IMG/VR virus record: IMGVR_UViG_3300006805_000044
Span: 1-47,384 of that record
Strand: one strand, 5' to 3'
Length of the DNA stretch: 47,384 nt
DNA from: a virus
Lineage: Duplodnaviria; Caudoviricetes
Position 1 is the stretch's first letter. Every line of letters begins with the position of its first letter. This document shows, piece by piece, positions 3,561 to 34,400 of this stretch. Both the position numbers and the translations under genes were made by a program. The notes beneath the pieces are model-generated. The model searched no databases and was not told where the DNA came from. It saw nothing but the letters and a program-made list of their open reading frames with translations.

Positions 3561-4012
3561 TCACATATGACGTGGAACCGTGGCAGCAGTTCAAGCGAGA
3601 AGCGGCGCATTTGTGGCCGCGTCATTGGGAAGAGATCGCGATCAACCGCGACAAGATACGCTTGGCCGTTGACTACGACCGATACGACCAGCTTGACGCT
3701 ACCGGGCAACTTCATGTCGTTGTTGCGCGCAGTGACGGTGAAGTCGTCGGGTATCACCTTACCCTTGTGCAGCCTCATTTGCACTACGCCGATACGCTGC
3801 ACGGTTTTACTGATGTGTACTACATCGCTCGCGAATTCAGGCGCGGACGTACCGGAATAGACCTGTTCAGGTTCGTTGAAAAAAGCCTCAAGGCGCGCGG
3901 CGTGAAGAAGTTGTTCACGGGAACGAAGCTGCACATGGATATGTCGGCACTGTTCAAGCGCATGGGCTGGACGCCGACCGAGACCTTGTTTACGAAGTAT
4001 ATTGGAGACTAA
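3557..4012 (+). CDS. GNAT-family acetyltransferase
   Basis: 'TDVYYIAREFRRGRTGIDLFRFVEKSLKARGVK...LFKRMGW' matches the acetyl-CoA-binding motif A and C-terminal motif B. Confidence 0.8.
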   Translation: MITYDVEPWQQFKREAAHLWPRHWEEIAINRDKIRLAVDYDRYDQLDATGQLHVVVARSDGEVVGYHLTLVQPHLHYADTLHGFTDVYYIAREFRRGRTGIDLFRFVEKSLKARGVKKLFTGTKLHMDMSALFKRMGWTPTETLFTKYIGD

Positions 4013-25683: not shown

Positions 25684-27242
25684 GGCCGTACCAATCAGCC
25701 GGCGTGAAAGAATGCGGCGATGCGTTCCGCGCCGGATTTCGTGCGCCCGCACTCGTGATTCCGACTGCCGGCGGGAAAACGCCCTGTGCTGCGCACATCA
25801 TCCGCTCAGTGACACAACGCGGCTGGCGCACACTGTTCCTCGCTCACCGCAAGGAACTGATCGACCAAGCATCTGCGAAACTGCATGAATGGGAAGTCGA
25901 GCACGGCATCGTGATGGCCGGCCGCATGCCGGATCGGCGTCACGCGGTGCAGGTCGCATCCGTCGCCACGATGATCAACCGACTCGATCGCTACGACGCG
26001 TTCGATCTTATCGTGATCGACGAGTGTCACCGCTCCGGCGCGCCGTCGTATGGCACGATCAACGACTACTACGGAAATCCGCGCAAGCTCGGGCTCACCG
26101 GAACGTTCTGCCGCCTCGATGGCAAGCCGCTCGGCGTGGCCGGCGGCGGCCTGTTCGACTACATCGCGCAAGGGCCGTCTACGCGAGAACTGATCGAACA
26201 GCGGTATATCAAGCCGTACCGGTTCTACCAGCCTGACGCGCTTGATCTCTCGGGCGTCGGTACGCGAGCCGGGGAGTACATCGCTGCTGACGCGGCGGGT
26301 GTCGTCGACAAGCCGAAGATCATCGGGTCGATCGTTGATCACCATGCGAAGCTCGGGGCCGGGCGGCCATCGATCATCTTCGCCGCGTCGGTCGAGCACG
26401 CCGAACATGTCGCCGAGGCGTTCCGCCGCACTAGCCTACGCGCCACAGCATGCTCAGCTGACACGGACGACAAGCTGCGAGCCGGCGTACTCAAGGATCT
26501 CGCGAACGGCCAACTCGACGTTGCCGTGAACGTCGGTCTCTGGATCGAGGGCATGGACTGCCCGGCGATCAGCTACGTCGGACTCGGCCGGCCCACCAAG
26601 TCGCTGACCTACTATCGACAGGCTGTTGGCCGCGGGTTCCGTCTGCATCCGGATTGGTCTGACCTCGTGATCGCTGATCACGCCAACTGCCAGCTCGAAC
26701 ACGGCTATCCCTGCGTACACATCGAATATACGCTCGACGGCCGGCCTACGCGGGACAAGGACGAGGAAGACGTAGCGGTCAAGCGCTGCGAGCGCTGCTA
26801 CGCCGTCTGCATGGCGTCGGCGCGCGTCTGTGACGCGCTACTGCCGGACGGCCGTGTTTGCGGCTGGGTGTTCGCCCAGGCGCCGCCCAGGCCGCGCGAG
26901 GTGCGTCAGGTTGAGGGCACGCTGCGCGAGGCGGACCTGCAGGCGGTCATCGCCGAGGAAGCGCGCAAGGCGGCGGAGCGGCGCTCGCAAGAGGGTTCCG
27001 CGCGGTCGCCGGAGGCGCTCGCCGCCCTGGCCGCCGAGCGCGGCTACGCGGAAGGCTGGGCGGCGCACAGGCAGAAAGCGCGGGACGAGAAAGCGGACCT
27101 GCAGCGGCGGGCGGCTGAGCTGCGCCGGCAGCAGGGTTGCTCGCTGTCGGGACTGTATGCGCTGAAACCCAAGGCGCTGCGCGCCGAGATTGCGGAGCGG
27201 CTGCAGGTGCAGGCGGAAAAGGACGAGGCGGAGATCGCATGA
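25671..27242 (+). CDS. Superfamily 2 DExH helicase with Zn finger
   Basis: LRPYQ, PTAGGKT, DECH, LTGT, EGMD.P, QAVGRGFR; C-terminal CxxC...C...C. Confidence 0.9.
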   Translation: MYELRPYQSAGVKECGDAFRAGFRAPALVIPTAGGKTPCAAHIIRSVTQRGWRTLFLAHRKELIDQASAKLHEWEVEHGIVMAGRMPDRRHAVQVASVATMINRLDRYDAFDLIVIDECHRSGAPSYGTINDYYGNPRKLGLTGTFCRLDGKPLGVAGGGLFDYIAQGPSTRELIEQRYIKPYRFYQPDALDLSGVGTRAGEYIAADAAGVVDKPKIIGSIVDHHAKLGAGRPSIIFAASVEHAEHVAEAFRRTSLRATACSADTDDKLRAGVLKDLANGQLDVAVNVGLWIEGMDCPAISYVGLGRPTKSLTYYRQAVGRGFRLHPDWSDLVIADHANCQLEHGYPCVHIEYTLDGRPTRDKDEEDVAVKRCERCYAVCMASARVCDALLPDGRVCGWVFAQAPPRPREVRQVEGTLREADLQAVIAEEARKAAERRSQEGSARSPEALAALAAERGYAEGWAAHRQKARDEKADLQRRAAELRRQQGCSLSGLYALKPKALRAEIAERLQVQAEKDEAEIA

Positions 27243-27825: not shown

Positions 27826-28047
27826 TCACTTTTCCGCGAAGTCGATGACGCTCGTCGGTACGTTGCGCTTCCCCTGCGAGCAGACTTGAAGCTGAACTTT
27901 CACGGTGCGCAGGATTTCGCGTGCCTGTGCGGCGATGGCATCGCCCTGGGCAGGAAGGATTCCACCCTCCTTGCCGTCTTCGCCTTTCAGCGCGTTCAGC
28001 GTTTCCCACAGCGCCTGTTTCAGATTGCTAGCGGTCAGATCTTTCAT
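27826..28047 (-). CDS. Small helical phage protein
   Basis: GGAG RBS; 'LKQALWETLNALK...AIAAQAREILRTVK.QL' resembles small proteins often paired with phage HNH genes. Confidence 0.65.
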   Translation of the reverse strand: MKDLTASNLKQALWETLNALKGEDGKEGGILPAQGDAIAAQAREILRTVKVQLQVCSQGKRNVPTSVIDFAEK

Positions 28048-28540
28048 ACTCTCGTCTCCTGCGTTGAGCCTTGTTGATAGTTCCGTTAATCATCATGATT
28101 TCGTAGCGCGATGCGTTCTTTGCGACCTCGGTGTCGATGTTCGCCAGCAGCACCGCGCTTTCCCAAAACTCGCCAAAGTCCTTTTTGGCGCGGTACTCCC
28201 TGTCGTACTCCGATTTCCACGCTCGATATTCCGGCCTGCGGCAGTATTCGACGTGGATCGGCATTCGCTTCTTTCTGTACGCTGCCGCCACAACAGGGTC
28301 GTACGTGGCCTTGAAGTGGGCGCGTTTCTGCGCTTTGATCTTCTCGCCAAGACGATCCCTACGCAGCCTGTCGTACTCGCTTTTCTCGGCTTTGCGCTGA
28401 TCGATCGACTTGCCTTTGCGACGCGCTATTCCCGCGCAGACTCGGCCGCAATAAAGTGGGGCGCCTACCTTGATTGCGCGGTTCACTTTGCCTGTCGGCG
28501 CATCAACTATCGCCTTGCAGACCGGGCACTGAATGCGCAT
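28028..28540 (-). CDS. Zn-finger plus highly basic helical protein
   Basis: CPVC...YCGRVC followed by R/K/Y-rich helices; GGAG RBS; immediately downstream of the structured RNA array. Confidence 0.7.
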   Translation of the reverse strand: MRIQCPVCKAIVDAPTGKVNRAIKVGAPLYCGRVCAGIARRKGKSIDQRKAEKSEYDRLRRDRLGEKIKAQKRAHFKATYDPVVAAAYRKKRMPIHVEYCRRPEYRAWKSEYDREYRAKKDFGEFWESAVLLANIDTEVAKNASRYEIMMINGTINKAQRRRREYERSDR

Positions 28541-28572: not shown

Positions 28573-28690
28573 TTCGCTCTCAAGTCTGTCGGCTGCATTA
28601 CTTCACGGCGCCGATCCGCAAGCGCTGCACTGGCGACCTTTCGCTTTCTCGCGAGACTTCGCAGTGCCAGCCGACAGACTTCAAAACGAA
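28573..28690 (-). ncRNA. Structured RNA unit 1 of tandem array
   Basis: 14-bp perfect stem (28582-28595/28668-28681), G.G mismatch, 8-bp lower stem with two U.G pairs on the minus strand; branched interior. Confidence 0.7.
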
Positions 28691-28692
28691 CT

Positions 28693-28798
28693 TTGCTCTC
28701 AAGGAATCGCACCGTGCAACCCATCTCGCTTTCCCGCATGGGTTCCGGTGGTTGCTTCACCGGCACGGCTTGATGGCGATGCGATTCCTTCAAAGCAA
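28693..28798 (-). ncRNA. Structured RNA unit 2 of tandem array
   Basis: 11-bp perfect stem (28701-28711/28780-28790), G.G, 7-bp lower stem; 11-nt bulge, then a junction with two hairpins (CCGGUG/CACCGG, AACCCAU/AUGGGUU). Confidence 0.7.
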
Positions 28799-28801
28799 CC
28801 T

Positions 28802-28937
28802 GTTGCGCTCAAGGATGGCGGTTGCTGACGCTAATCTTGCGGACAGTCGGGCTATACAAGGTCATGTCGCCGCAAGCGATGTTCCGTAGCCCACCCGGAT
28901 TTGCCGGGCTTGTGCAACCGCCATCCTTCAACGCAAC
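28802..28937 (-). ncRNA. Structured RNA unit 3 of tandem array
   Basis: 15-bp perfect stem (28811-28825/28914-28928), G.G, 8-bp lower stem; two internal hairpins and a possible pseudoknot. Confidence 0.7.
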
Positions 28938-28939
28938 CC

Positions 28940-29094
28940 TCTGGTTTGTGCGCTCGGGCAGGGCTTGATACCTGCTGGCTGACGGGACTGAACGCGCTGG
29001 AACTTAATTGCCCGTCGTTCGTTGCTTGATTCTGCCGCAACCGAGCGCGTTATCGTGAGCGTTTCCTTCAACGCCGCCGAACGCACAAACCAGA
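28940..29094 (-). ncRNA. Structured RNA unit 4 of tandem array
   Basis: 18-bp closing stem (28940-28957/29077-29094) with one internal U.G on the minus strand; four internal hairpins including GCAGG-UAUCAAGC-CCUGC. Confidence 0.65.
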
Positions 29095-29127
29095 AAGTTA
29101 TCCCCGGAGATACGTGGCTATGCTGAT

Positions 29128-29292
29128 TCAGGTAACCGGGTACGTGATGACCATCTGCCCTCCCTCGAAAGCATTCCGACATTGCTCGCCGAGGACGCGG
29201 CGTTCGGCCTGTTCGTCGTGATTCATCACGTACTTTGCCACGACGACTTCGCGGCCATTGATGCTCTGCTTGACGATGACCTGCACTTTCAT
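29128..29292 (-). CDS. Small hypothetical protein (54 aa; not in ORF track)
   Basis: GGGAGA RBS; MKVQVIVKQSINGREVVVAKYVMNHDEQAERRVLGEQCRNAFEGGQMVITYPVT. Confidence 0.65.
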   Translation of the reverse strand: MKVQVIVKQSINGREVVVAKYVMNHDEQAERRVLGEQCRNAFEGGQMVITYPVT

Positions 29293-29628
29293 GATGTTCT
29301 CCCGTTGTCGGTAAGTTGTTCCGGTTACGGTTCCGGCGCCTTGCGGCCGTCAGTGTTTCCCGCCTTTCACCGCGGCGGGCTGCGAGTAGTCTCCGGTCTA
29401 CGCTTCCACTACAGCGCTGCATTCCTAACCGGCAAGGGACTGGCTCGCTCGTGCTGCATCACCAGTCATCCGTCCTAGCGCTTTCGCGCCGGCACTCTCG
29501 GAGAATTCCTCCACTCCGAAAACACACTAAGCAATGCGCTTTCGGACTGACGCTCCTCAGTCGTCGCCCGGCCAGCAAGGGGGAGGCTGGCCGGGCGACC
29601 AAGCCGCGGACTCGTGAGCGGCGAGCCA

Positions 29629-29656
29629 ATGATACCACGACAACGGATGTTGTCAA
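29629..29656 (-). promoter_or_regulatory. Leftward promoter TTGACA-16-TATCAT driving the RNA-array cassette
   Basis: -35 at 29651-29656, -10 at 29629-29634; near-copy of the 24071-24098 promoter; operator AACGGATGTT at 29642-29651. Confidence 0.75.
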
Positions 29657-29788
29657 CACCTTGACCGCACGCCGATTGCAGTAGCAGTATCGACAGGCAC
29701 AAAAAAGCCCCGTAGACCGGGGCAACGTAGACACTTGGGTGCGCGCAGTGTATCGCGCTATACGCCCCTGCACAATGACAGGGATACC

Positions 29789-32044
29789 ATGAGCCACGAA
29801 GAAGAACCTATCAAATGGGTTCCGGCAACTATCACCGCGCCGACAGCGCCGTCGAAGCATCCGAAGCATGGAATAGCTACGCGTACGTGGGAGTATCGCA
29901 ACGCAGATGGCGACGTGATCGGATACGTCAATCGATACGATACAGATACGGGGAAGGTATTCGCTCCACAGATATACGATGGAACAAAGTGGCATTGGAA
30001 GTCTTGGTCGTCGCCGCGTCCTCTATACGGTCTGGATCGACTCGCCGAGCATCCTGCGGCCTGGGTAATCGTGACCGAGGGCGAGAAGGCGGCAGATGGC
30101 GCTGAGCCATCGCTACCGACGTGCGTGACCATCTCCGCGTCCGGTGGTCGCAATGCGCTCAAGCACGCAGATTGGTCGCCGCTCGTCGGTCATCCTGGCG
30201 TGATCCTCTGGCCTGACAACGATCACGATCAGGGAGGGCAGAGAGCATTCCACGAGCTCGCCGCACACCTCGCCTCGCTAGGCGTTCCCGTCGTCAAGAT
30301 CATCGACCCGTCCGGACATGACGACGGATGGGACGCGGCCGATGCCGCTTTCACGCCCGAGCAGATGAAAGAATGGGCGAAGGGACGCGTCAGCACGTAC
30401 GACGGACCGCGCGTATCGCCGTGGTCCGTGTCGCCGTCGACCGAGCGCCGGCCGCGACCCGCACCAGCTGCAGCGGAGCCGGCTACCACTCGCGCCTCGC
30501 CCGTCATCGAGCCCTACGACATCCTCGGCAAACCGTTCATCCCGGCACTCAAGCCCGAGCATCTTCCTAAGGCGCTGCGCGAGTTCGTGTTCGATCAGTC
30601 GTCCATCATCGGCTCAGACCCCGGCATCATCGCGATCGCATCCCTCGTCGCCGTCGCCGGCTGCATCAACGATAACATCGTGTTGCAGGGTAAACGCGAA
30701 GAAACGGGTTGGACCGAATCCGCCCGCCTATGGGGCGCCTGGATCGCCGATCCGTCGAGCAAGAAGTCCCCCGCCAGTGGCCGCGCCATCAAGCCGCTGC
30801 GGCAGATCGATGCGGCGCTACGCATTCAGTCGGCCGCCAACGCCAAGCGTGGCGCGATCGACAAGGCCGTCTACCGCGACGCGCTCGGCAAGTACGTCGA
30901 GGACAAGTCGAAGCAGTTGCTGCAAGGCGGGCCGTGTGGGTCGCCGCCTCAGGAGCCGGAAGAGCCATTGGATCTGCGCCTCATGGTCAGCGATACGACG
31001 ACGGAAAAGCTCGGCATCGTCATGAAGGACAATCCGCGCGGGCTCATCATGAACTTCGATGAGCTCAGCGGCCTGTTCGGGCAAATGGACGCGTACAAGC
31101 AGGGCGGAACCGGAGGAATGGACCGCGCGAAGTACCTGGAGCTGTACAACGGCGGCGTGCAGACCGTCGACCGCATCGGCCGCGAGTCGATCACGGTGCC
31201 GAACTGGAGCGCCTGCATCATGGGCGGCATCCAACCGTCGTCCATCCGCGCGATTGCGTATAAGCTGCCCGAAGACGGCCTGATGCAACGATTCATGGTC
31301 GTGATGGCGCAGGACACCGGCGACATCGGCGAGGACCGACGCGCGAGCGAAGCGGCAACCGAGCGCTATGCCACGCTGCTGCAGACGCTGCATGCAGACA
31401 ACGGACCGAGGCGCGTGCTGCGCATGAGCCAGGAGGCGGTCAACGTGCTGCGGCGTCTGGAAACGGAGCTGCTCGACGTGCGCAAGCTAGGAACGGCATC
31501 GGAGCGCGTCAAGGCGGCGCTCGGGAAATACTCGGGCCTGTTCGTAAGACTCTGCCTGACCTACCACATGGCGAACGCGGTAGATGCTCGGCGCGACCCG
31601 CTCGTCGAGGTATCGGCAGATACAGCGTGGCAGGTCTACGAGTTCATGACCGGCTATCTCGTCGGGCACCTCGTCGCGTTCTATGACGACTTGCTCAACG
31701 ATAACGGACACGCTGAACACGCGCGCGCTATCGGATCGATGATCCTCGCTCGCCAGATGGACTCGATCTGCAACCGCGAGGTCCACCGCGGCTATACGCC
31801 GTGGGCTTCGGTGCCTGATTACAAGCGCCTGGCAGCGTTTCGCTACCTTGAGGACGCAGGATGGATCTTCCCGGTGTCGCCAGATGGCGGCCGGCGCGTC
31901 GTGCACTACGACGTGAATCCGCGCGTGCATGAGATGTTCTACCGGACGGCCGAGGAAGAACGAGCCAGGCGACTAGCGGTTGTCGATCAGATGCGAGCGT
32001 CTGCGCTAGTCAGGGCGATGCAGAGGACGGTGAGGGCAGCGTGA
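29789..32044 (+). CDS. TOPRIM primase fused to DUF3987 (YfjI-like) P-loop helicase
   Basis: VTEGEKAAD, WPDND..G and GWDAAD (TOPRIM); ADPSSKKSP, FDELSG and DGLMQRF (DUF3987). Confidence 0.85.
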   Translation: MSHEEEPIKWVPATITAPTAPSKHPKHGIATRTWEYRNADGDVIGYVNRYDTDTGKVFAPQIYDGTKWHWKSWSSPRPLYGLDRLAEHPAAWVIVTEGEKAADGAEPSLPTCVTISASGGRNALKHADWSPLVGHPGVILWPDNDHDQGGQRAFHELAAHLASLGVPVVKIIDPSGHDDGWDAADAAFTPEQMKEWAKGRVSTYDGPRVSPWSVSPSTERRPRPAPAAAEPATTRASPVIEPYDILGKPFIPALKPEHLPKALREFVFDQSSIIGSDPGIIAIASLVAVAGCINDNIVLQGKREETGWTESARLWGAWIADPSSKKSPASGRAIKPLRQIDAALRIQSAANAKRGAIDKAVYRDALGKYVEDKSKQLLQGGPCGSPPQEPEEPLDLRLMVSDTTTEKLGIVMKDNPRGLIMNFDELSGLFGQMDAYKQGGTGGMDRAKYLELYNGGVQTVDRIGRESITVPNWSACIMGGIQPSSIRAIAYKLPEDGLMQRFMVVMAQDTGDIGEDRRASEAATERYATLLQTLHADNGPRRVLRMSQEAVNVLRRLETELLDVRKLGTASERVKAALGKYSGLFVRLCLTYHMANAVDARRDPLVEVSADTAWQVYEFMTGYLVGHLVAFYDDLLNDNGHAEHARAIGSMILARQMDSICNREVHRGYTPWASVPDYKRLAAFRYLEDAGWIFPVSPDGGRRVVHYDVNPRVHEMFYRTAEEERARRLAVVDQMRASALVRAMQRTVRAA

Positions 32045-33412: not shown

Positions 33413-33679
33413 TTACATCGCCCCGAACCCAGCCTTCCTCGCCAGCTCATCGCGCGTCGGCCTCCGGTGCCCCTTCGCCACATTGCAGCGCGCGCAGGCG
33501 GCGACGATGTTGTCGAGTGAGTCGGTGCCGCCTACCAGACGCGGCACAAGGTGGTCTGCCGTAGCAGCGTTCCTGGCCGCCAGGTCGCAACGGCGATGCG
33601 GGATTACCAGCTCGCGGCCACAGTAGAAACACACCCAACCCTGTTGCTCAAGGGCGATACGAAGCACGTCGCGGGTCAT
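33413..33679 (-). CDS. HNH endonuclease
   Basis: CFYCG...TADHLVPR..GG....NIVAAC.RCN..KG; GGAGG RBS. Confidence 0.85.
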   Translation of the reverse strand: MTRDVLRIALEQQGWVCFYCGRELVIPHRRCDLAARNAATADHLVPRLVGGTDSLDNIVAACARCNVAKGHRRPTRDELARKAGFGAM

Positions 33680-33699
33680 TTTGTCCCTCCGAAATGTTG

Positions 33700-34400
33700 C
33701 GTTGCAGCACGAAAAACAGCCCCGTGGTCGACCCCTGTTATACCCATTCCGAGGGCATTAACAAAATTCTAACGCCGATGTTAATTGGTGCACTGCAACG
33801 GAACATTTGTTGCCATGGTTATCCACAGGCCATGTCGGGCATTGTCGTCGTTATCAACCAATGACTTACGTACACGGTTCAAACAACCATCTCAAACGCT
33901 TGTTTTAAGTTAAATGACAACAAACGTGTTTTTTTGTTCAGTTACATGTACGAACAGTAAATGAAAAACAACAAATGTAGCTGAATTTGGCCAGACAAAG
34001 GCTGACAACGGTGGAAAACTTTTTGAATGTCGGGGTTTGTCTGTACACGTGGGCTACCCCTAAATCCCTTCCCTTCCCTTCCCTTCTTCATCAATTCTGC
34101 GCCGAAGTAATGATTACCCCCAAAATCGTACTCTTACCCCCTTAGGGCTTTTCCTAGGGACAAACCCCGACATTGGGGTTTTGGTGTAAACATGGGCCGG
34201 AGGCCGAAACTGGAGATTACCTGGCTGAATCGCTCCGAGAGCTCGCGAATATGCCTACCATGTAGGGTGGTAGCGGGGTAGGTTGAGATATAGGCTCACA
34301 GCGCGTTCTGTGAGGTCGTGCAAAACGCCGTGAAATCGACCTGTTGCTATAAGGAGCGCGACGTGGTAAACATCTGTTGTCGCCCGGAAGGGTGTTTTTG
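33700..34400. other. AT-rich non-coding region; candidate replication origin or packaging/terminus region
   Basis: No credible ORF; A/T tracts at 33890-34030; 16-bp perfect inverted repeat (34026-34041/34159-34174); (TCCCT)n tract; TACCCC repeats; transcription diverges here. Confidence 0.45.

Follow-up and report, generated by a model that had tools for sequence, protein, structure and literature searches.

A minus-strand array of four fold-back units with candidate RNase III closing stems in the leftward operon of a phage

Overview

The leftward operon of the phage genome described here carries, on the minus strand at 28573-29096, an array of four abutting non-coding fold-backs (U1 to U4), each of which encloses a different insert within a long closing stem. 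These closing stems are, with good confidence, RNase III sites. The best explanation overall, on which our judgment is evenly balanced, is that host RNase III would release four stem-clamped small RNAs, likely acting in trans early in infection, and we lean slightly towards a function of their own for the released inserts. The window, i.e., the whole stretch of DNA that was analysed, is a whole virus record of 47,384 bases with 61% G+C.

The Leftward Operon and Its Setting

The gene content of the window includes terminase, tail-fibre, helicase, RecE-like, endolysin and spanin-like genes. The best cultured matches are proteins of 30-55% identity, mostly from proteobacterial phages, and judged by these similarities the phage looks proteobacterial. 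The leftward operon is composed, in order, of a promoter (29656-29629), a 330-nt leader, a 54-aa ORF, the array, ORF170 and ORF73. The promoter, already placed at 29629-29656 by an earlier note on this DNA, is of the sigma-70 type on the minus strand (TTGACA-16-TATCAT with an extended -10, TG), agrees with the consensus at 11 of 12 positions, and is divergent from the primase-helicase gene (primase/DUF3987; 29789-32044, plus strand), which runs opposite to the array operon. Just upstream of it lies a terminator-like hairpin with a U-run (29707-29723, minus strand), a consensus match only, as 2 such matches were found in the region against 2.7 in shuffles.

The leader (29296-29622, minus strand) is non-coding and structured, and contains a GC-rich hairpin with a C-rich loop at 29556-29604 (folding z -5.4). 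This stable hairpin, which lies outside the array, resembles sX13 below the Rfam threshold (E 0.36). Thirteen GGA triplets occur within the 327 nt of the leader (p 0.013) and are possibly CsrA/RsmA sites, and a small hairpin before ORF54 (29318-29337, minus strand) matches the leaders of two other loci, L474 and L491, at 19 of 20 bases. ORF54 (29128-29292, minus strand) has coding-like codon use and belongs to no family. ORF170 (28028-28540, minus strand) encodes a 170-aa Cys-rich phage protein of unknown function, and its end is overlapped by the 73-aa ORF73 (27826-28047, minus strand); no Pfam or PHROG family was found for either. ORF170 has 483 relatives, in which CxxC and CxxxC are invariant, and is widespread, mostly without such an array; the two ORFs (27826-28540) co-occur as a pair in unrelated phages. 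Elsewhere in the window, an AT-rich non-coding stretch (33692-34174) with two inverted repeats (16-19 bp arms) lies beside an HNH gene (33413-33679); it is origin- or end-like, and similar inverted repeats were seen downstream of distant primase relatives (L176-L188).

Structure of the Four Units

Sequence and folds confirm the four abutting minus-strand fold-backs with closing stems that the earlier note had described: U1 (28573-28690), U2 (28693-28798), U3 (28802-28937) and U4 (28938-29096). The spacers of 2-3 nt given there hold for U1/U2 (2 nt) and U2/U3 (3 nt), but U3 and U4 adjoin with 0 nt between them. U1, U2 and U3 carry a UUGAAG/CUUGAG core in the closing stem, which spans 24 positions in U3, and the stems are numbered here so that the G·G mismatch of this core is pair 9. 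U4 is closed by a duplex of ~20 bp that keeps the same frame, in which pair 9 is C-G instead of G·G and pair 10 is U-A; the pairs that could form at its outer end are in competition with the base of U3.

The core had been called fixed, with its U·G pair and G·G mismatch, and in U1-U3 it is: pairs 7-12 are identical (U·G, U-A, G·G, A-U, A-U and G-C), and so are pairs 2, 4 and 23. The flanking pairs, said to differ in sequence and yet keep pairing, indeed vary on both arms at 12 positions and on one arm only at 1, and standard pairs occupy 63 of 63 cells across pairs 2-23, pair 9 excepted. With this pattern, the three stems look as if they had been copied from one ancestral stem and kept paired by selection.

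Folding z-scores of the minus strand are -7.3, -6.6, -5.8 and -6.0 for U1 to U4, and those of the plus strand are -5.1, -4.1, -5.8 and -2.9; energy alone gives no strand, because the plus strand also folds. On the minus strand, pairs 2-23 of all four stems contain 9 G·U and 0 A·C, three of the nine being the shared pair 7. Wobbles are thus G·U on the minus strand only, as previously stated, which agrees with the direction of the leftward promoter. A motif-free stem scan of the whole window returned 12 minus-strand stems, among which U1-U4 have the top four minus-strand scores.

It is very unlikely that the inverted repeats act as DNA (cruciforms, recombination or packaging sites), or that they are terminators or small-protein genes. 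Good folding of the plus strand and the ORFs of 40-118 aa that cross the array would be expected of such elements, but the excess of G·U over A·C on one strand speaks for RNA, no U-run terminators were found in the array, and the array region is non-coding: the codon-model scores of its six frames range from -0.01 to -0.28, whereas ORF54, ORF73, ORF170 and the endolysin gene score +0.17 to +0.35 in the same model.

With Rfam covariance models, among them c4, ToxI/type III antitoxin, ribozymes and rRNA, 0 matches at the gathering threshold were obtained in the whole window, and ARAGORN detected no tRNA or tmRNA cloverleaf genes in it. A CRISPR or pseudo-ToxI tandem array was ruled out, as there are no near-identical direct repeats at a regular period. 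The earlier exclusion of both CRISPR and tRNA therefore stands.

Relatives of the Closing Stem

Pre-rRNA processing stalks of Bacillota, Actinomycetota and Acidobacteriota were also found to carry the U-A/G·G/A-U core above a short lower stem. All four stalks (16S and 23S) from Bacillus pumilus and Priestia have it, as do 3 of 12 further 16S stalks (those of an Acidobacteriota genome, Streptomyces and Actinomadura); the 16S counts leave out L361 and L375, whose leaders are too short, and L377-L379. U1-U3, but not U4, share with the Bacillus-type stalk this core, a 3' arm reading UGAG/UGAA, a lower stem of 7-8 pairs and an upper stem of 14-16 pairs, and the RNase III cut of the stalk is mapped next to the core. 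B. subtilis RNase III cuts 67 nt after the 16S end, and the extension begins AAGGA (excerpt of PMC6144821); when this distance is counted off on the record of a different B. subtilis strain, the published cut falls at UUAGUUU^UGAAGG, give or take a base. For S. aureus, the cut positions A-92 and U+64 were reported (excerpt of PMC3386247). The core is absent from the 7 proteobacterial 16S stalks and the Variovorax 16S/23S stalks examined and the phage looks proteobacterial, so that direct mimicry of a host rRNA stalk is unsupported.

No homologous array was recovered in any search of cultured phages, IMG/VR, GTDB or metagenomes. In cultured phages, blastn gave four records, all at chance level. 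Scans of IMG/VR with the primase and ORF170 yielded no array, a later scan giving 14 loci at 40% or less; primase relatives exist at 88% and 84%. Stem-junction patterns retrieved 94 + 63 IMG/VR loci and 106 GTDB loci, none with a paired unit according to a detector that recovers U1-U3 in the window. The metagenome scan (35 of 64 parts) returned, among the matches listed, the window's own contig and distant relatives; 802 genomes of two proteobacterial orders gave short chance matches only, and no close primase was found in 401 genomes. In two low-GC viral records, 257 nt near a tRNA gene are surrounded by a UUGAG/UUGAG G·G stem (about 400-680 on the reverse strand of L034 and L048).

Among the 68 ORF170 loci in IMG/VR, a comparable region was seen only in L453, where a promoter, small ORFs and an 800-nt non-coding region (z -4.85) are followed later by the ORF170-ORF73 pair. 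This locus also carries a stem with a G·G core, and it shares exact 14- and 15-mers with the non-coding region of the window, but not the primase. Over 72 nt it matches Burkholderia phage Bcep176, the leader of which contains a G·G-core stem round a 60-nt insert, and neighbouring modules recur beside repressor-type genes in Magia, E192a, PL1 and BgManors32. A further 46 loci were retrieved with an anchor motif located outside the stems, giving 52 loci of Burkholderia phages and IMG/VR records that share the leader module. The leader stems of these loci form a related family.

Stems with U-A/(G·G or C-G)/A-U, one or more per locus, occur in 41 of these 52 loci, against 13 units in 12 loci on the reverse strand of the same loci. 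In a motif-free search, the core was found in 25 of 42 distinct long stems, with G·G as the commonest mismatch (31/83). At positions that the detector does not force, a 3'-arm G at pair 7 is present in 26 of 28 arm pairs and G-C at pair 4 in 21 of 28. Pair 9 is G·G in 17 of the 28; since homologous Burkholderia units carry either G·G or C-G there, the mismatch is tolerated, not required, and U4 of the window also has C-G. The inserts range from a tiny loop, in many members, to three conserved types of ~60 nt, and the units are 0-7 nt apart in 7 of 12 multi-unit loci, L476 having three in a row. The earlier note's picture of constant RNase III-like stems with variable inserts is supported both by the core shared with cut pre-rRNA stalks and by this family with exchangeable inserts.

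A pair profile (positions 2-19) trained on the Burkholderia loci only ranks U3, U2 and U1 first to third of 3407 registers in the window, and 0, 0 and 1 of 25,671 background registers, respectively, score as high; U4 is not recognised by it. When the profile omits the three positions that the detector forces, the background registers that reach the scores of U3, U2 and U1 number 39, 196 and 1077, respectively, of 25,671. The Burkholderia loci are close kin with ~6 effective arm types, and the profile result gives moderate support to one design shared by the array and the Burkholderia stems, common descent not being proven by it.

Several other features of these leaders were observed. The Burkholderia temperate phages (L462, L466-L470 and L471-L516) have conserved non-coding leaders of 0.6-1.1 kb next to the repressor, which contain a boxA-like element as well as several modules that match nothing in Rfam; some of the tiny ORFs annotated in them (Bcep176 gp28-31) are probably not genes. 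No Rfam match at threshold was obtained for six loci of the family tested. One insert type, found twice in Bcep176 (L462:2321-2425 and 3732-3837) and also at L476:1029-1134, weakly resembles the pistol ribozyme (20.1 bits against a gathering threshold of 34.5, E 0.73), and its first hairpin shows one compensatory change in three sequences.

RNase III Site Criteria and Predicted Cleavage

By analogy with known sites, the favoured register would place the cuts at UUGAAG^N on the 5' arm and CU^UGAG on the 3' arm, with a 2-nt 3' overhang. This register, which would put the cuts at 29089/28943 in U4, 28925/28812 in U3, 28787/28702 in U2 and 28678/28583 in U1, is central in the stem, and the predicted products are ~147, ~114, ~86 and ~96 nt for U4, U3, U2 and U1, respectively. 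The two-fold symmetry of UGA/UGA also makes a mirror site possible, 5 pairs lower and centred on pairs 6/7, with products of 157, 124, 96 and 106 nt. U1, U2 and U3 all have G-C at pair 4, and a cut at UU^GAAG was rejected for this reason.

The stems offer about two helical turns of duplex (22-24 positions, with one mismatch in U1-U3). E. coli RNase III prefers A-U or U-A at D and D' and at least one G-C between the cuts (excerpt of PMC6212723). With the letters assigned to pairs as we read that excerpt, D and D' are pairs 8 and 15. Each of the four units has A-U or U-A at both, and in the favoured register one G-C (pair 12) lies between the cuts. In the Burkholderia stems, pairs 15 and 12 are not conserved and the mirror register fits better. 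It was further reported that G-C at proximal-box position 4 inhibits E. coli RNase III in vitro while binding stays intact, the distal-box pairs concerned being U-A and U·G (excerpt of PMC1540722); pair 13 is G-C in U3 and U2 and U-A in U1 and U4, so that two units depart from this E. coli in vitro rule. Aquifex RNase III ignores the distal box (PMC3074117), real sites are often poor matches to the consensus (excerpt of PMC5371410), and the enzymes of B. subtilis and E. coli follow similar rules (excerpt of 10.1101/2023.03.12.532304).

The pair-13 G-C of two units, as a catalytic antideterminant that spares binding in vitro (excerpt of PMC1540722), would also suit an array that is not processed by RNase III, in which the stems are bound or cut by something else, such as a phage or host dsRNA-binding protein, or bound uncut by RNase III, and the entire array would act, unprocessed, as a single long structured RNA, e.g., a sponge for RNase III or an antitermination scaffold. 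Lower stems of only 7-8 pairs, and the position of the Burkholderia stems after boxA-like elements in pL-type leaders, point the same way. We consider this improbable: the core geometry is identical to that of rRNA stalks known to be cleaved, U4 forms a near-perfect duplex, and no boxA-like match was seen when the sequence of the window's leader was read.

Inserts

As stated in the earlier note, the apical insert differs in each unit: the four are mutually unrelated in sequence, and the array contains only a 15-nt partial direct repeat. Insert-only folding z-scores are 0.07, -0.10, -2.06 and -1.23, no better than shuffles, save marginally for U2; the stability far beyond chance belongs to the closing stems and not to the inserts. 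No homologues of the inserts were found in the searches described above, and the decoy, antisense or guide roles suggested in the earlier note are conjectural.

Smaller features of the inserts are as follows. The U2 insert (28712-28779, minus strand) has two alternative folds of equal energy, both -52.8 kcal/mol, and its AAGCAAC loop is complementary to a GUUGC near the 3' arm, a possible switch or pseudoknot. A loop-like UGAAGYAA occurs in U1 and U2 (approx. 28607-28614 and 28752-28759, minus strand) and also in the module shared by L453 and Bcep176, and the array contains three copies each of AUCAAGC and UUGCGG. The U4 insert matches L476 over 19 nt; this match sits in a repressor-like reading frame and was treated as chance.

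The insert of U4, which folds into several hairpins, includes a 31-nt stretch (28973-29003, minus strand) complementary to the 3' end of the helicase gene (27138-27168), with 26/31 identical as DNA. Based on this match, at least U4 might be a cis-encoded regulator that pairs with the end of the helicase message, and the array a self-targeting antisense set. The duplex energy is -48.1 kcal/mol, 3 of 300 shuffles score as high, and a 10-nt unpaired stretch lies inside; however, this p of 0.01 is weak, because the match was found after several looks, and the inserts of U1-U3 have no comparable match in the phage genome. The antisense set is accordingly judged quite unlikely.

Proposed Mechanism and Its Meaning

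In the mechanism that we favour, host RNA polymerase would transcribe the leftward operon early, from the 29656 promoter, and each stem would form once its 3' arm has emerged. RNase III would then cut both strands of each helix near the middle, releasing the four RNAs (~147, 114, 86 and 96 nt), each clamped by the 11-12 remaining pairs. The clamp would protect the RNA ends as precursor stems do, and the products may be stable; the ORF170 message would gain a new 5' end ~42 nt before its start. The trans action is the least supported step: our committed guess is that the RNAs would serve as protein-binding decoys or as regulators of host RNA-binding machinery. Decoys would fit better than Hfq-type sRNAs, because the inserts are mostly paired and multi-branched, without terminator tails. 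U4 may in addition be an antisense regulator of the phage helicase-nuclease message, which is a lead only.

The main argument for the inserts as products is that gene separation alone would hardly call for four abutting sites. The stems could nevertheless be RNase III sites in cis only, in the style of the lambda N leader and the T7 early message, with inserts that are inert or quickly degraded; cutting would separate the leader and ORF54 from ORF170-ORF73 and tune stability or translation. The start of ORF170 lies 33 nt after U1, the inserts fold no better than shuffles, many Burkholderia members enclose only a tiny loop, and the lambda N leader and dicBF fold as comparable single stems round ~90 and ~110 nt, all of which would be in keeping with such a role. 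One site would suffice for it, however, whereas four abutting sites with 0-3-nt spacers yield only inserts, and the Burkholderia inserts are conserved types with some covariation. A purely cis-acting array is thus considered rather unlikely, and release of the inserts by RNase III remains the preferred reading.

If the inserts are released and active, they would represent a class of RNA effectors missed by gene callers and Rfam, with predictable ends that ease cloning and testing; cultured Burkholderia phages with related stems (Bcep176 and Magia) provide a direct experimental route. More tentatively, a portable RNase III clamp of rRNA-stalk design may serve as a plug-in slot for small structured RNAs that are unrelated to each other, and the arrays as a library of swappable RNA effectors in early operons. 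Were this true, the effectors would be decoys for defence or regulatory proteins, antisense RNAs and ribozyme-derived folds, and would parallel, at the RNA level, the small accessory-protein genes found in early regions. Even with a role in cis only, the stems document an RNase III processing module that phage leaders can reuse.

Comparison with Known Systems

The closest precedents are single stems in phage and prophage leaders. The lambda N leader likewise belongs to a leftward early operon and has a long helix that closes a ~90-nt insert (17 bp in our folding), but it is a single stem without the UGA/UGA G·G core, follows nutL, and has a described role in cis. The lambda pL N-leader stem is an RNase III site. 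RNase III controls the lambda N mRNA (excerpt of PMC8708148). The dicBF leader of the E. coli Qin prophage also lies on a pL-like transcript with a long untranslated region, and its processing by RNase III yields the trans-acting sRNA DicF (excerpts of PMC10448788 and PMC5069750). By our folding it forms a 21-pair stem round ~110 nt; DicF itself is located outside this stem and depends on RNase E and a terminator. By analogy, the array would likely work like the lambda N-leader and dicBF stems (excerpts of PMC10448788, PMC5069750, PMC8708148 and PMC3867540). Differently from the array, dicBF has no repeated stem core, and there is no sequence likeness between them.

In the T7 early region (R1.1), too, host RNase III processes a phage polycistron, and the AAG/CUU pairs of the array are presumably as in the R1.1 proximal box, but the T7 sites are short hairpins between genes. 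The stable species 1/2 RNAs of T4 sit in a tRNA cluster, whereas the genome of the window is without tRNA. The Bacillus-type pre-rRNA stalks enclose kilobase 16S/23S rRNAs, which the units of the window, having no Rfam match, do not. The UGAG(A/C)GC stems of Burkholderia phages (Bcep176, Magia, E192a, PL1 and BgManors32) resemble the array in their early leftward leader, 3'-arm motif, exchangeable inserts and up to three abutting units, and differ from it in that pair 9 is often C-G, the upper-stem sequence is different, and no insert is common to both.

The literature searched contained no description of such stem-clamped arrays or of the Burkholderia UGAG leader stems, and no match was found in six supplementary files of a survey of viral candidate RNAs (PMC10690425). 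Single RNase III stems that enclose ~100 nt in phage leftward leaders are already known (lambda N leader, dicBF), and to call the array an undescribed system, as was done at first, is therefore an overstatement. The array belongs to no Rfam family, and what is new compared with lambda N and dicBF is the tandem of core-bearing stems.
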